Shown here piece by piece: positions 13,335 to 48,430 of a stretch of DNA of 64,000 nucleotides (position 1 is its first letter; each line of letters starts with the position of its first letter). Made by a program: the position numbers and the translations under genes. The stretch is from Escherichia phage REP2. The notes below the pieces were generated by a model, which worked only from the letters and a program-made list of their open reading frames with translations, had not been told where the DNA came from and searched no databases. The stretch lies in the sequence record OQ174501.1; one strand, 5' to 3'.

Positions 13335-13991
13335 TTATTTAGCCCTTCCTAATATTCTGGCCGCCTGAGAACATATTGATTCAAGGCGGTCATTACTTAT
13401 ATGATCATTTCTATACCAGTACATGGTTATTGTTCCAGCATAGATATTATCCAAATTGAAATATGGACAACTGTACATGTAATTTATTTCGGGAGTAGGC
13501 TTTTTAGTTGGTAAAAAAGCAAATTTTGAGTCGGAATAATAATGACGTCCATTTAAATGAACTGCATATTCATCCATAGTTTTATCAACAGGATATCCTC
13601 CAAGTGATTTTTCGCTTATTGTTGAAGGTAATTTTCCTTCGTATGCTATAATATCAACAAAATAGTTTAAGTTTTTAGGGCGGAAAGAATATACCGCACT
13701 AAAGTCTGCCTCAGATGATATATGAACTATCTGGAGTTGTTCCAGGGCGACAGATTCAAAGCGTGCATTTCTTTCCTTTTCAATAATTTCGCTGTATGTT
13801 TCATACTTTGATTGCTTATAGTACTCAAAGAAACTATCTCCCCTATACCAAACAATCGCCATTATAAACAAAAGAATTACGACAGCTACCCGGGAAGCAA
13901 GAACTTTCCCGGTAGCATTATCTTTGAACAAGCGATCTAGAACACCAAATAGAATATCAGAGGGCGAAAATGATATTCTAGGTGCTGCCAT
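13335..13991 (-). CDS. t: Holin T
   Basis: 218 codons, same as T4 holin; N-terminal cytoplasmic segment, one transmembrane helix (VAVVILLFIMAIVWY), large periplasmic domain; RBS AGGAGGG. Confidence 0.85.
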   Translation of the reverse strand: MAAPRISFSPSDILFGVLDRLFKDNATGKVLASRVAVVILLFIMAIVWYRGDSFFEYYKQSKYETYSEIIEKERNARFESVALEQLQIVHISSEADFSAVYSFRPKNLNYFVDIIAYEGKLPSTISEKSLGGYPVDKTMDEYAVHLNGRHYYSDSKFAFLPTKKPTPEINYMYSCPYFNLDNIYAGTITMYWYRNDHISNDRLESICSQAARILGRAK

Positions 13992-14021
13992 AGACCCTCC
14001 TTTTAAGGGTATTTATTCACA

Positions 14022-14804
14022 TTATACTCTTGGACCATATATTGCTCCAACATTTTGCCATGTTGGAGCGGACCCTATGACAGCATAACCAGCAGCACCG
14101 CCATCATATTCAGATCCTTGACCGCGAATATTGCATCTACCTCCCGCGGAACCTACTTCACCACCGTTTCCGCCATTATAGATACCATTCACGGATCCTG
14201 AGCCAGGTGCAGAAATAGTACCACCAGTCGCGCCTGATTGCATATCAATAGATCCGCCTGGCGCACCAAAAGGACGACCGCCACCGCCGCCAAAGGTCAA
14301 TCTCATTTGTGAAAAAGGAGAATAATATCCGCCGCCACCGCCACCGCCGCCGCCTGCAATAGCTCCGCCATTATTAATTCTTAGTCTCCCACCAATATCG
14401 TTTTGAATACAATGACCCCCAGCTGAGCCAGGACTATTGCTACCACCATTACCTCCACGACCATACATCGTTACGCCATGTATATTTAACTGAACATATT
14501 CATTTGGTGTATCTCCGTACATGAAGAATAAAGGAACATCTTTAGAATATGATACTAAATCACCTGTAATATTAAACACTATAGGTGCACTACCGGCCTC
14601 AAAACATCTATCTCGGAACCATTGACCATTGAAGTTATGGTCTGCTCCAAGTGTATGAATAATTTCTCGTGAGCGACCTGCAAATTGACTCATCCAGCAA
14701 GGAACACCCAATCTTAATTGACCAGCCGCTTGACTCATCCATCGTTGCCCTGTTTCATTTGCGGCTGAACTTCCAATCCAACCAGGAACACCAACTACTG
14801 CCAT
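14022..14804 (-). CDS. 38: T2-type receptor-recognising adhesin gp38 with glycine-rich motifs
   Basis: 260 codons with poly-Gly runs ([24 protein letters not shown]) separating variable segments, as in T2/K3/Ox2-type gp38; immediately downstream of gene 37. Confidence 0.8.
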
Positions 14805-14816
14805 AATTTATCTCCA

Positions 14817-14835
14817 AAGGGGGCGTTGCCCCCTT
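14817..14835 (-). other. Intercistronic hairpin AAGGGGGC-GTT-GCCCCCTT between genes 37 and 38
   Basis: Perfect 8-bp palindrome with 3-nt loop, directly upstream of the gene 38 SD (GGAG) on the minus strand. Confidence 0.55.
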
Positions 14836-14839
14836 GTTG

Positions 14840-17785
14840 TTAGAATTTAAAATATTTACTAATTTTGCGAGCAATTTTAGTAAAGAAAGGAGTTTTCAAT
14901 TCTTTAATTTCTTCACTCATTTCCTGAATAGCCTTAATTAAAAGAGCATTCACAGCAGAGTTAGAAATTGTCAGAACATCAGATCCATCAACTTCAACTT
15001 TAGATACAGCTTCCGGTAATTCCTTTTCAAGGTCCTGAGCAATAATACCAACTTCACGTTTAATAACGCTACGGTCTTTAATAGACTTAACTTTATCGTA
15101 AATATAAACTTTCAGTCGGCATACTTTTTCGACTGCTCCATATTCTAATTCTTCTTTATTAATCTTGAGACGGGAGTCAGAACGAATATACACATCGCTA
15201 AAGCTACCATTTCCTGGTGTATAAAAGAATCCATCATGATGGAATTCAAACACAGCTTGTGGGTGTCCAGCATCAGGAGAAGCCTCCGTGGATCCGACAC
15301 GAATGATTGCTTGCCCCCACTGTGATGGAATACGACGCATACCAAAGTCAACAGCGGTGCTATATCCTTGATTGGTTATAACGCTTCTTGCTTTAAGAAT
15401 AGGATAATAACAATCCTGTGAAACATAACCATGATCAACGAATAATGGAGCTTCTACTCGCCATTGGTTGCCCCAATCACCCGGTTGTCTAGCAATCCAT
15501 CCAGAACCGTTAATGTGTACACGGTCGCGGTTAACGTTAACCATTGCGGTATTTTGCGGGTTTAACGCAATCTCACCATTGTTTGTGATATGTACTGCCG
15601 CCTGAGAAGCATAGCTATAAAATGCTAGCGAATTATCAGCACCACCCTTGCCAATATACCAGTTACCAGTCCCGTCTATGTCACCGCGAATATGCAAAGA
15701 ATTACTAGCAGTTGTTGATAATACAATAGAATCATTAGGTGCATTGATTGTTAACCGACCTGTCATCGTATCACCGCCTTTACCTACGCGAGTATTCAAG
15801 GCAGCATCTAAATTTGTCGCATTGTTATATTTCTTCCAGATTGAACCGGCAATATTACCATCTGTATTAAGGAACGCATCACCGACATATACACGTCCTG
15901 GAGATTTAAAATAACCTGACGGCATGAAAGTCCATTGTTTTAACCCATCTGCTGTTCCATTAGCGGATAAATCACCCTGAGCAATGATCTTATATTCGGA
16001 TGTACCTATAGCCATACCAGTGGCAAAGGTGATATTACTTACAGTATTTTTCTGTTTAACAATTGGCGCAAACTGGTTTTTATTTGAATCGTCAATAGCC
16101 TGATATAATGGCGCAATGGTAGTATTCTGATTTGCGTAAGTATTAGAACCAGAACCGCTAGCAGGGGCTTGAATATATGCTCCTGGAGCAAGTGAAATTT
16201 TCTGATTAGCACCAAGATTAACAGCAGCAGTGATATTCAGCAATCCCCTAAAGTTTTGTTGAGCAGTCCAAGTATGTGATCCGTCTTCAAGAACAACACG
16301 GCGACAAGTATTAGTCCTACTTCCTGGATTACCAGCGATACGAACAACGAAATAACGGTAGTTTGTCTGGGATACAGTACCGCGCCAAACCTGAACAGTA
16401 CGCCCTGTGCCAGTGTGTTCGCTAGGACCAACGGAAAACATAACCAAGTTTCCGTCAATCGTCCCCCAATCCATATTTGCTGGCATGTTCTTTATTTTGT
16501 TCAAAGGAACGCTAAACATACTACCAGGAACAAAATCAAAGGTTTGCCAATCTAACTCCGCTAATTGAGCTTTAATACCACCCATACCCAAAGTAATTGG
16601 CAGAGAGTAAGATGTATATACTTCGTTCCATGCACCCCACGCACCACCAGTATATGCACGCTCAAAAATACGTCCGCGAGTAGTTGCGCCTGTTCCGGCA
16701 GTAGTAAATTTTTGGAAAATAGCACCACCAGAAGCACGCTGTTTAACTTCCAGCAAACCAACAATAACAGGCGGCAAACCTTCACCTGTAGGGCAGTTAA
16801 TAACGGCATCGGTGCCTAAAATATTATATAACCCAGGAGTTTTAAAATCATTAAGGTCACCATCATAGAAAGTCGCTGGTGTGCCATGACCAACCTGCTT
16901 CCATTCCTCCCACTTAGGTGCACTAGCATCCCATGCAGCAGCGAGACAACGAGTATAAACCATACCCATGCGGGTAGTATAACGCTGAGTTCTCGTGTAT
17001 AAACCACCTTCAAATATTTCTAAAAATCCTTGTGCGGCTGATCCTTCTTCTGGATAATGGCGATCAAATGATGCGATTGCGCTTGAACTGTTTCGCCATA
17101 AGCCACAATGTTCTAATTCTCCCAAGCTATCAAGGTCAATCGTTTGTGAAAGTGGACGAGTTGACGCTTGAACATTACGCCACACACCCCATGGACCATC
17201 GACGCCATTCCATTTAGCAGATAAGGAACGAATATAGACGTTACCAGATCTTACAGTATAACGCTGAGTGCCAGCAAATTGGCCGGCCACAAACACTTCT
17301 AGTACACCTACGGCATTTTCTTCTGGGAATTTATTTGCTGGTTGCGCATTTGTTGAAGTAGATTTCGACCAAACACCAAGATATTCTTCAATGGGCCCAT
17401 ACGTATCTAAATTAGCATCAGTAGGTAATTCGCCATTATTTTTTATAAATGTTGTGCTATTGACATTTATGTCAGATGGAGTTAAGGTAATGTCTTTTGA
17501 CCCATCAAAAGATATACCATTAATTTTCCTAGGTGTTTGCAATTTAGTAGCTGTGCTAGAATTTCCAATTAAAGTTCCAGTTATATTTTCTGTAACCTCT
17601 AAAGACCCATTTATAGTTCCTCCATATTTTAAACCTAATTCTATAACACTACCTGAGTCATCTTTTGTGAAAATTGTTTTATCTTTTAAGTTTATAGCCA
17701 ATTCACCTTCGGCTAATACTGAAGCAGCAGGACGTTGACCTGCAGTTTTGCTTCTTTTAAATTGTATTTGTTTTAAAGTAGCCAT
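14840..17785 (-). CDS. 37: Long tail fibre distal subunit gp37 with C-terminal intramolecular-chaperone-like domain
   Basis: 981 codons between genes 36 and 38; C-terminal ~115 residues carry a ...[18 protein letters not shown]... motif resembling the autocleavage region of S74-type intramolecular chaperone domains. Confidence 0.85.
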
Positions 17786-17793
17786 AAGTCCTC

Positions 17794-18444
17794 TTAATAA
17801 TAGCCGAAATCTTGAACAGAATCCTTAATTACGATTTGGTCAAATCGTGGAACGTGTGAAGGTTGAGATGCAGGATTCTGTGAAAAAAGGTTTGGCGCAG
17901 TTAAATTTCCTGTCATAGTGTCTCCAGAGCGTAATACCCTAGAGTTTGCATTTGTTGTAACAGTATTTATTGCTCCATCAACATAATCTTTACGAGTAAC
18001 ATCAGATGCTGCGGAAGGAGTAGATGTAACAGTTACAGATGGAGCCGTTACAGCCCTGGTAAATGTTGTCAAACCTTCTGGTGTAATAGTAATTTGTCCA
18101 GTAGTGATTTCACTACCTGCAGGTCTAAAACTAATACCGCCGGAAGAGCCACCAACTACAAGAGTATTACCGGTACCGCCACCAGAACGAATTCGAATGG
18201 GGGTTTCATTATTACTTAATTGAAGATAACTATTTACCCCGTAATTAATAGTAATTGGACCGGTGTAAGTACCACCATTAGCTTTAGAAACGAAATCGTT
18301 ATCAGCTGCCTGCGGTTTATTATATTCTGAATATATTTTAAATGATTTGTAGAGTACATCGTCACCGGCTGAATTCAATGGAAAATTTCCTTGATGCCAA
18401 ATGACAGATCCACCTACAGTTGAACCTACTTTTAAATCAGCCAT
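17794..18444 (-). CDS. 36: Long tail fibre hinge protein gp36
   Basis: 216 codons (T4 gp36 about 221); position between 35 and 37. Confidence 0.85.
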
Positions 18445-46973: not shown

Positions 46974-48430
46974 TTCTTAAAATTCTGAATGAAATAGCAT
47001 CTATTGGATCAACTAAGCAGAAGCAAGCAATTCTTGAAAAGAATAAAGATAATGAATTGCTTAAACGGGTATATCGTCTGACTTATTCTCGTGGGTTACA
47101 GTATTATATCAAGAAATGGCCTAAACCTGGTATTGCTACCCAGAGTTTTGGAATGCTGACTATTACCGATATGCTTGACTTCATTGAATTCACGTTAGCT
47201 ACTCGGAAATTGACCGGAAATGCTGCAATTGAGGAATTGACTGGATATATCACCGATGGTAAAAAGGATGATGTTGAAGTTTTGCGTCGAGTGATGATGC
47301 GAGACCTTGAATGCGGTGCTTCAGTATCTATTGCAAACAAAGTTTGGCCAGGTTTAATTCCTGAACAACCTCAAATGCTGGCAAGTTCTTATGATGAAAA
47401 AGGCATTAATAAGAATATCAAATTTCCAGCCTTTGCCCAGTTAAAAGCTGATGGAGCTCGGTGTTTTGCTGAAGTCCGAGGTGATGAATTAGATGATGTT
47501 CGTCTTTTATCACGAGCTGGTAATGAATATCTAGGATTAGATCTTCTTAAGGAAGAGTTAATCAAAATGACCGCTGAAGCCCGCCAGATTCATCCAGAAG
47601 GCGTGTTAATTGATGGCGAATTGGTATATCATGAGCAAGTTGAAAAAGAGCCAGAAGGTCTAGATTTTCTTTTTGATGCTCCTGAAATCAGTAAAGCTAA
47701 AGAGTTTGCCGAAGTAGCTGAATCTCGTACTGCATCTAATGGCATCGCCAATAAATCTTTAAAGGGAACCATTTCTGAAAAAGAAGCTCAATGCATGAAG
47801 TTTCAGGTCTGGGATTATGTCCCGTTGGTAGAAATATACGGTCTTCCTGCATTTCGTTTGAAATATGATGTACGTTTTTCTAAACTAGAACAAATGACAT
47901 CAGGTTATGATAAAGTAATTTTAATTGAAAACCAGGTAGTAAATAACCTAGATGAAGCTAAGGTAATTTATAAAAAGTATATTGATCAAGGTCTTGAAGG
48001 TATTATTCTCAAAAATACCGATGGATTATGGGAAAATGCTCGTTCAAAAAATCTTTATAAATTTAAAGAAGTAATTGATGTTGATTTAAAAATTGTAGGA
48101 ATTTATCCTCACCGTAAAGACCCTACTAAAGCAGGTGGTTTCATTCTTGAATCAGAGTGTGGAAAAATTAAAGTAAATGCTGGTTCAGGCTTAAAAGATA
48201 AAGCCGGTATAAAATCGCATGAACTTGATCGTACTCGCATTATGGAAAACCAAAATTATTATATTGGAAAAATTCTAGAGTGCGAATGCAACGGCTGGGT
48301 AAAATTAGATGGACGTACTGATTACGTTAAGCTATTTCTTCCAATTGCAATTCGTTTACGTGAAGATAAAACTAAAGCTAATACGTTCGAAGATGTATTT
48401 GGCGATTTTCATGAGGTAACTGGTTTATGA
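46970..48430 (+). CDS. 30: ATP-dependent DNA ligase
   Basis: 486 codons; translation MILKILNEIASIGSTKQKQAILEKNKDNELLKRVYRLTYSRGLQYYIKKWPKPG... matches T4 DNA ligase as recalled, including the KADG adenylation motif. Confidence 0.95.
   Translation: MILKILNEIASIGSTKQKQAILEKNKDNELLKRVYRLTYSRGLQYYIKKWPKPGIATQSFGMLTITDMLDFIEFTLATRKLTGNAAIEELTGYITDGKKDDVEVLRRVMMRDLECGASVSIANKVWPGLIPEQPQMLASSYDEKGINKNIKFPAFAQLKADGARCFAEVRGDELDDVRLLSRAGNEYLGLDLLKEELIKMTAEARQIHPEGVLIDGELVYHEQVEKEPEGLDFLFDAPEISKAKEFAEVAESRTASNGIANKSLKGTISEKEAQCMKFQVWDYVPLVEIYGLPAFRLKYDVRFSKLEQMTSGYDKVILIENQVVNNLDEAKVIYKKYIDQGLEGIILKNTDGLWENARSKNLYKFKEVIDVDLKIVGIYPHRKDPTKAGGFILESECGKIKVNAGSGLKDKAGIKSHELDRTRIMENQNYYIGKILECECNGWVKLDGRTDYVKLFLPIAIRLREDKTKANTFEDVFGDFHEVTGL

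Follow-up and report, generated by a model that had tools for sequence, protein, structure and literature searches.

The C-terminus of gp37, the distal subunit of the long tail fibre, is confirmed as an intramolecular chaperone domain of the S74 family in the DNA analysed here, a single window of 64,000 nucleotides from Escherichia phage REP2 (sequence record OQ174501.1), and the adjoining gene encodes a glycine-rich adhesin, gp38. We regard it as highly probable that this gp37 is a precursor, that its S74 domain removes itself, and that gp38 docks on the fibre and is presented to the receptor. A self-cleaving gp37 domain with a gp38 tip is already known: it dates back to the 1980s in T2, has been understood at the structural level in S16 since 2018 and was reported in 2021 for near-identical Yersinia phages. 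The features on which the analysis is based are as follows:

14840..17785, minus strand: gene 37, long tail fibre distal subunit precursor (ORF, 981 aa plus stop).
15182..17785, minus strand: predicted mature gp37, aa 1-868, ending ...GSFSDVYIR (placed by the cleavage position in the homologues T5 pb1 and S16).
14843..15181, minus strand: C-terminal intramolecular chaperone domain, aa 869-981 (S869-F981), 113 aa, ~12.9 kDa (Pfam, profile matches and fold).
15179..15181, minus strand: codon of Ser869, the predicted nucleophile, with which the released domain is predicted to begin (aligned with position 1 of the Pfam S74 model; invariant in 17 homologues).
15164..15166, minus strand: codon of Lys874, predicted general base of a Ser/Lys dyad (Ser + 5; invariant in 17 homologues).
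14818..14834, minus strand: G+C-rich hairpin AGGGGGC-AAC-GCCCCCU, located after the stop codon of gene 37 and before the ribosome-binding site of gene 38 (read from the sequence and folded).
14022..14804, minus strand: gene 38, predicted tail fibre tip adhesin (ORF, 260 aa plus stop; adjoins gene 37).
14679..14804, minus strand: gp38 N-terminal attachment domain, aa 1-42, with Trp9, Trp22 and Trp37 (PF21721).
14025..14666, minus strand: gp38 specificity domain (beta-helix and polyglycine), aa 47-260, containing variable loops besides glycine-rich motifs (PF05268 and alignment with S16, T2 and Bas35).
13335-13991, minus strand: holin t, the next gene after gp38 (ORF list).

The gp37 sequence matched PHROG 1699 ("long tail fiber protein distal subunit") with an E value of 4e-203 and was 100% identical to CDS WCA46021.1 of Escherichia phage REP3, to which the whole region was also 100% identical. 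In the REP3 record, gene 37 is labelled "long tail fiber protein distal subunit" and gene 38 "tail fiber protein" only. The genes are arranged in the order 36-37-38-t on the minus strand, and the same order is found in T2, T6, S16, PST, Bas35 and fPS-65. The hairpin between genes 37 and 38 was considered as a terminator or translational element, but a consensus scan for terminators called none at this hairpin, and its stability in a 71-nt context did not exceed that of shuffled sequences (z -1.07).

The first-pass annotation had pointed to an S74-like C-terminus from the peptide [21 protein letters not shown], which is indeed found at aa 862-882 of gp37 (window positions 15140-15202, minus strand); the interval assigned to it, 14840-15200, covers aa 862-981 and the stop codon, although the peptide extends two bases beyond 15200. 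The assignment to the S74 family was borne out by a Pfam profile, by a profile search of solved structures and by fold comparison. PF13884 (Peptidase_S74), which corresponds to MEROPS S74, matched aa 869-927 over model positions 1-57 of 58 with 39.7 bits (E 6.2e-10), above its curated gathering cut-off of 22 bits. The domain occupies the extreme C-terminus, aa 869-981 of the 981 residues of gp37; upstream of it are PHROG matches to long-tail-fibre families and a Pfam match to PF20744 (gp37_trimer) at aa 692-742, which precedes the predicted cut. The motif S869-D870-S871-R872-L873-K874 fits the pattern S-D-x-R-x-K, and in an alignment of 17 homologues, including those of T2 and S16, S869, D870, R872 and K874 were invariant. 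The spacing between Ser869 and Lys874 equals that between Ser1264 and Lys1269 of T5 pb1 (PMC4690869). Of the two Ser-Asp pairs in this peptide, S863-D864 does not mark the cut, which likely lies before S869. Just upstream, the D864-V-Y-I-R868 block and G852 were at least 90% conserved in the homologue alignments. The short SDxRxK motif alone is not significant, as it occurred twice in the six frames of the window against about one occurrence expected by chance, and its count was therefore dropped as a significance test; the Pfam profile match is significant.

Searching solved structures with the single sequence of whole gp37 returned 6F45_A alone, and only weakly (E 0.007). With a homologue profile, the search matched S16 gp37 (6F45_A) at an E value of 7e-42 and also reached the tail fibre 8JOV, the ICA domain of the eukaryotic MyRF (7DC3) and the chaperone of the neck appendage of GA-1 (3GUD). 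The 3GUD chain starts with SDERHK, the residues with which the gp37 motif aligns. The homologues of aa 840-981 comprised only 22 proteins, mostly partial, so that the alignment was shallow, and the upstream part of the AlphaFold2 model of the same segment folded poorly: the 29 residues before the cleavage site had pLDDT values of 42-48, compared with 86-92 over aa 880-959 and a mean of 75. The elements of this model (aa 840-981), which is a monomer although the domain works as a trimer, were H45-51, E54-60, E68-75, H77-83, E88-93, E96-101 and H103-139, that is, a body of mixed alpha/beta structure with beta-hairpins and, after it, a long coiled-coil helix at the C-terminus. When the model was compared with the PDB by Foldseek, the best 11 matches were all intramolecular chaperone structures, led by 7DC3 (TM 0.65, E 1.4e-5) and followed by 3GUD, 3GW6 and 4UW8; K1F 3GW6 and T5 4UW8 surfaced by fold comparison only, and the sequence identity in these structural alignments of the chaperone domain was 9-22%. 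The K1F endosialidase, T5 pb1, GA-1 and MyRF ICA chaperones share with gp37 the S-D-x-R-x-K motif, the Ser/Lys dyad and the fold, and they likewise follow trimeric beta-structure at the C-terminus, while their client domains differ.

The homologues T5 pb1 and S16 gp37 place the likely scissile bond of this gp37 at Arg868-Ser869, in which case the piece removed would be 113 residues long. T5 pb1 is cut at Thr1263-Ser1264, where Lys1269 activates the serine and the substitution S1264A blocks cleavage (PMC4690869). An upstream Arg/Asp "folding sensor" has been described for T5 and K1F (Arg1250 and Asp1239 in T5), in which the Arg comes from an adjacent subunit and, with its acidic partner, senses that the trimer has folded correctly. 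The intramolecular chaperone of S16 gp37 is autocleaved at DLNVS^SDRRIKK, by which the gp38 docking surface is exposed, and a 2021 paper on the fPS phages, fPS-65 included, predicted a cut at DVYIR^SD together with gp38 docking (PMC7917993). By the same homology, gp37 of the phage analysed here, identical to that of REP3, would also cleave itself. The exact bond is not beyond doubt across the family, and cleavage one residue later, between Ser869 and Asp870, would leave a mature gp37 that ends ...DVYIRS and a released piece of 112 aa. We find such a cut improbable, given that the serine departs with the chaperone in T5 pb1 and K1F (PMC4690869), that S16 gp37 is reported to be cut before the SD serine (PMC7917993) and that the crystallised GA-1 chaperone chain 3GUD begins with SDERHK.

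Another alternative is that the S74-like domain is an uncleaved or inactive relic that is retained on the fibre, with gp38 confined to a role in assembly, like the gp38 of T4. Against this stand the invariance of the Ser/Asp/Arg/Lys motif and the 88-99% conservation of the domain among phages of the T6, PST and fPS-65 type. The uncleaved T5 chaperone masks the binding tip (PMC4690869), and an uncleaved domain in this gp37 would likewise occupy the gp38 docking site. Moreover, gp38 belongs to the adhesin family, carries three docking tryptophans and lacks similarity to T4 gp38, so that a retained relic is almost certainly not the right description of a domain that we predict to be self-removing.

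The adjoining gp38 had been described from sequence as a 260-aa glycine-rich adhesin rather than a T4-type chaperone, and Pfam, BLASTP and PDB matches agreed with that description. It matched PF05268 (GP38) over the full model at aa 47-260 (241.3 bits), PF21721 (Gp38_N) at aa 1-42 (71.4 bits) and PHROG 2056 ("tail fiber protein; host specificity"), and in the PDB it matched 6F45_D (E 1.2e-49) and 9V85_A, the gp38 of PP01 (E 7.8e-79). Glycine accounts for 24% of the residues in gp38 as a whole and for 34% of those in aa 115-260, where there is a run of nine G at aa 151-159 and a further one at G172-G176; most columns that are invariant in the alignment are Gly, and they alternate with stretches that differ between T2, S16 and this gp38. 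The tryptophans W9, W22 and W37 were invariant in an alignment with fPS-65, Bas35, T2 and S16. In S16, three conserved Trp of gp38 insert into pockets on the base of gp37, and a single gp38, the most distal component of the fibre, sits on the gp37 trimer (PMC6851490), which agrees with the content of PDB 6F45 (three gp37 chains and one gp38 chain). A 3:1 docking is predicted here by homology with that structure, and homology with Bas35, T6/PST and S16 also suggests that this adhesin-type gp38 is present in the virion and binds the receptor. BLASTP of gp38 against T4 gp38 (183 aa) gave no match at E <= 1e-3; a T4-type assembly chaperone was ruled out on this lack of similarity and on a T4 gp37 that has no S74 domain.

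T4 has the same locus, with gene order 34-35-36-37-38-t, and the first 64 aa of its gp37 are 75% identical to those of the gp37 analysed here. T4 gp37, however, consists of Collar and Phage_fiber domains without S74 and binds the receptor itself, and T4 gp38 is not a part of the virion (PMC6851490, PMC9608196). The T4 record itself states that the "gp38" of the T2 subfamily is unrelated. By Pfam, the S74 domain is found at the same relative position in gp37 of T2, T6 and S16 and is absent from that of T4.

The T2 gp37 (1341 aa) has the Pfam S74 match at its C-terminus (aa 1243-1300, 56.5 bits), the same type of junction (NVYIR|SDIRLK) and a GP38-family adhesin encoded downstream, but it is only 41.6% identical to this gp37 over the last ~125 aa, and the BLASTP identity of the two gp38 proteins, 52%, extends over the first ~145 aa only, the specificity domains being different. 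T2 gp37 has been reported to undergo proteolytic processing (Drexler et al. 1986, cited in PMC3157838). The loss of roughly 120 C-terminal residues that the first-pass annotation gave for it is an approximate figure, as the T2 piece defined by the motif is 99 aa long; for the figure of ~120 residues, the openly available text provided only a statement that T2/T6 gp37 is cleaved and that 1986 reference. Salmonella phage S16, which belongs to a different genus (Gelderlandvirus), also has an S74 chaperone at the C-terminus of gp37 (Pfam, aa 638-698), and its monomeric gp38, with the three docking Trp and a polyglycine sandwich, caps the gp37 trimer (PDB 6F45). The chaperone domain is ~29% and gp38 45-50% identical between S16 and the phage here, and S16 gp37 differs just upstream of the cut, save for the last few residues.

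The closest relatives are of the T6/PST type. The gp37 proteins of PST and Bas35 are 96.7-96.8% identical to this gp37 over the full length, the chaperone domain is also 113 aa long in T6, PST and Bas35, and the identity of gp38 is 97.7% with Bas35, 96.5% with PST and 93.9% with T6. The label "T2-type" thus stands in the broad sense of T2/T6-like as opposed to T4-like, but by gp38 identity the precise subtype is T6/PST. The substitutions between PST gp38 and this gp38 include positions 165-167 and 207, in the region where PMC3157838 places the PST-specific HVS2/HVS3 changes Q167R, M168I and G208I (numbering of Trojet et al.). In fPS-65, gp38 (Gp247) is 99.2% identical, with 2 substitutions, and the last 306 aa of gp37 (Gp246) are 97% identical; this stretch includes the junction [30 protein letters not shown]|SDSRLK, which is identical, and a chaperone domain of 113 aa. 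fPS-65 has no counterpart to the central gp37 shaft found here (aa ~527-675), and its isolation host was Yersinia, as opposed to E. coli for REP3.

The primary receptor on E. coli K-12 is likely Tsx, the one used by WilhelmHis (Bas35), with whose gp38 this gp38 shares 97.7% identity. The tsx dependence of Bas35 was complemented genetically, the phage requires waaC besides tsx, and the receptor of T2 is FadL (PMC8594841); on E. coli, Tsx is also recognised by phages whose adhesins are T6-like (PMC3157838). For fPS-65 in Yersinia, the reported receptor is no protein but the heptose region in the inner core of LPS (PMC7917993), and since its gp38 differs by two residues, the assignment of Tsx may hold only on E. 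coli.

The location of host range in gp38, as claimed from the sequence, is supported insofar as gp38 is the primary receptor determinant, but it is one host-range factor among others, as close relatives need the inner core of LPS as well (PMC8594841, PMC7917993). Alternatively, gp38 could matter less for host range than LPS core recognition, host defence systems, the short tail fibres or the mosaic shaft of gp37. The LPS receptor of fPS-65 despite its nearly identical gp38 (PMC7917993), the joint need of Bas35 for waaC and tsx (PMC8594841) and the mosaicism of the gp37 shaft between close relatives all favour this alternative, as does the statement, in a figure legend of PMC12032242, that infection patterns may differ with identical Gp38. 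That source also reports that Gp38 similarity predicts the receptor across Straboviridae, and the distal position of gp38 in the S16 fibre (PMC6851490) also argues against it. We therefore think it rather unlikely that these other factors outweigh gp38.

Taken as a sequence of events, gp37 would be synthesised as a precursor of 981 aa, and its segment Ser869-Phe981, as a trimer, would nucleate and register the folding of the distal gp37 beta-structure. Once the trimer had folded correctly, Ser869, activated by Lys874, would attack the Arg868-Ser869 bond in each chain, and the chaperone trimer would drop off. Its release would bare a blunt hydrophobic fibre end (...DVYIR868), on which one gp38 would dock through its N-terminal three-helix domain (Trp9, Trp22 and Trp37). 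In T5, cleavage unmasks a receptor-binding site, whereas here it is predicted to unmask a docking site for a second protein. The polyglycine sandwich of gp38 would then show its variable loops to the host, and these loops may bind the primary receptor in the outer membrane, on E. coli K-12 most likely Tsx, along with a dependence on the LPS inner core. The chaperone of the T6/PST subtype also has a C-terminal tail, [17 protein letters not shown], which is 15-17 residues long, basic and amphipathic (net charge +5, hydrophobic moment 0.73) and is absent from T2 gp37 and most homologues. There is a very slim chance that, through this tail, the precursor or the chaperone trimer after its release does more than fold the fibre and remove itself, for example by associating with membranes or by timing the assembly of the fibre.

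The value of these results is in annotation and phage engineering rather than in discovery. Once the record names the S74 domain, the predicted R868|S869 site and an adhesin of T6/PST type, the receptor (probably Tsx) would be predictable from sequence. For a change of host range, the unit to swap would be gene 38, either by itself or with the final gp37 residues and the chaperone domain added.

The distal tail fibre block of the window is of standard T-even type and lies on the minus strand, where the ORF list gave the following genes:

17794-18444, minus strand, gene 36
14840-17785, minus strand, gene 37 (981 aa)
14022-14804, minus strand, gene 38 (260 aa)
13335-13991, minus strand, holin gene t

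Nucleotides 14000-17800 matched 633 phage records, with 100% identity to Escherichia phage REP3 (OQ174502, genus Tequatrovirus) and 99.4-95.7% identity to many T-even phages of E. coli, Shigella and Yersinia. The neighbours annotated in REP3 are the usual set (rIIA/B, topoisomerase, motA, asiA, t, 38, 37, 36, 35, 34 and rnh), and genes 37 and 38 are named only generically there. A perfect, G+C-rich hairpin (AGGGGGC-AAC-GCCCCCU, 14818-14834, minus-strand sense) separates the stop codon of gene 37 (14840-14842) from the gene 38 ribosome-binding site (GGAG) and start codon (ATG). At its place, the record of Yersinia phage fPS-65 has a terminator annotated on the opposite strand. A consensus scan called no terminator at the hairpin, and on folding its 71-nt context did not exceed shuffled sequences in stability (z -1.07).

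The first-pass annotation had proposed that gp37 ends in an S74-like intramolecular chaperone domain. The peptide that it quoted corresponds to gp37 aa 862-882 (15140-15202), and its interval of 14840-15200 to aa 862-981 together with the stop codon. gp37 has a single S-D-x-R-x-K motif (aa 869-874), which is not significant by itself, because chance alone would yield about one in the window when all six reading frames are counted. A second match, SDSRMK (48139-48156, minus strand) inside a 48-codon open frame, is consistent with this expectation and bears no sign of a real S74 site. The Pfam profile search bore the proposal out: PF13884 (Peptidase_S74) covered aa 869-927 (model positions 1-57 of 58) with a significant score of 39.7 bits (E 6.2e-10; curated cut-off 22). 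When 17 homologues, T2 and S16 gp37 among them, were aligned, the invariant residues included S869, D870, R872 and K874.

The profile of this alignment, searched against solved structures, found S16 gp37 (6F45_A, E 7e-42), tail fibre 8JOV, the eukaryotic MyRF ICA domain 7DC3 and the GA-1 neck appendage chaperone 3GUD, the starting SDERHK of the 3GUD chain being aligned to SDSRLK of gp37. An AlphaFold2 model of gp37 aa 840-981 (mean pLDDT 75; 86-92 over aa 880-959) consisted of a small alpha/beta body, which contains two beta-hairpins, and after it a long C-terminal helix. Its 11 best Foldseek matches in the PDB were all intramolecular chaperone structures, namely 7DC3 (TM 0.65, E 1.4e-5), 3GUD, 3GW6 (K1F endosialidase) and 4UW8 (T5 pb1), and no significant PDB match fell outside this class. 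The S74 module is very common among phages. It closes several PHROG tail fibre families as well as PblB and hyaluronidase families, and tblastn with the gp37 domain matched 1537 phage records spanning T-even relatives, T5-like L-shaped fibres, Stx phages and streptococcal PblB proteins.

By Pfam, S74 domains also end gp37 of T2 (aa 1243-1300), T6 (aa 882-940) and S16 (aa 638-698), whereas T4 gp37 has Collar and Phage_fiber domains in its place. In T2 gp37 (AP018813, 10028-14053), the removable piece defined by the motif runs from S1243 to the end and is 99 aa long, compared to 113 aa in the window. About 120 C-terminal residues are reportedly removed from T2 gp37, more than these 99 aa. In the T6/PST subtype, to which the window gp37 belongs, the chaperone domain ends in a basic amphipathic tail (aa 965-981, 14843-14893; [17 protein letters not shown]; net charge +5, hydrophobic moment 0.73), which T2 gp37 and most of the 17 homologues lack.

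In T5 pb1, the Thr1263-Ser1264 bond is cut, S1264A stops cleavage, and the serine, activated by Lys1269, stays on the released chaperone, as it does in K1F (PMC4690869); the reported cut in S16 gp37 is DLNVS^SDRRIKK (PMC7917993). By alignment, the window gp37 would be cut between Arg868 and Ser869, the latter acting as nucleophile and Lys874 as base. The mature gp37 would then have 868 aa and end in DVYIR, and the piece set free would have 113 aa; the masses calculated from sequence are ~93.9 and ~12.9 kDa, respectively. In the S16 tip structure 6F45, three gp37 chains are combined with one chain of gp38; the base of gp37 offers three equivalent pockets, and each of the three N-terminal helices of the single gp38 places a conserved tryptophan in one of them (PMC6851490). 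The corresponding W9, W22 and W37 of gp38 were invariant in an alignment with fPS-65, Bas35 (phage WilhelmHis), T2 and S16. We infer that gp37 cleavage and gp38 docking also take place in the window phage. Proteolytic processing of gp37 is on record for T2 and T6 (Drexler et al., 1986, cited in PMC3157838). For the fPS phages, it was predicted previously that gp37 is cut at DVYIR^SD, that the chaperone is released and that gp38 docks (Salem et al., 2021; PMC7917993), with the docking explained by the S16 structure (PMC6851490), and the junction of fPS-65, one of these phages, is identical to that of the window gp37. The whole arrangement has been published before, and the phage sequence is already in GenBank.

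That gp38 is a glycine-rich adhesin and not of T4 type was likewise confirmed: it matched the whole PF05268 (GP38) model with 241 bits and PF21721 (Gp38_N) with 71 bits, aa 115-260 were 34% glycine with one run of nine, and BLASTP found no similarity to T4 gp38. Window gp37 was 96.7-96.8% identical to those of PST and Bas35 over the full length, including the shaft. It was 93 and 89% identical to T6, and 96 and 97% to fPS-65, over the N-terminal 524 (T6) or 526 (fPS-65) aa and the C-terminal 306 aa, respectively. Between these flanks (88-97% identity to fPS-65/T6), shaft aa ~527-675 (~15760-16207) were unrelated in T6 and fPS-65, a mosaic that looks like recombination inside the fibre shaft. 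Window gp38 was 99.2, 97.7, 96.5 and 93.9% identical to those of fPS-65, Bas35, PST and T6, respectively, while T2 gp38 aligned over the first ~145 aa only (52%). The tip therefore belongs to the T6/PST subtype, and its earlier description as T2-type holds only for the broad T2-like class.

Complementation confirmed the dependence of Bas35 on both tsx and waaC (PMC8594841), Tsx is the target on E. coli of phages with T6-like adhesins (PMC3157838), receptors are predictable from Gp38 similarity across Straboviridae (PMC12032242), and in Yersinia, fPS-65 is reported to use the heptose region of the LPS inner core as its receptor. Together, these reports suggest with moderate confidence that the window phage would depend on Tsx and the LPS core on E. 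coli K-12. The predictability of receptors from Gp38 agrees with the placing of host range in gp38, but gp38 is not its sole factor. The first-pass interpretation is thus supported with small refinements, which concern the exact bond, the subtype (T6/PST), the receptor (probably Tsx) and the existence of host-range factors besides gp38.
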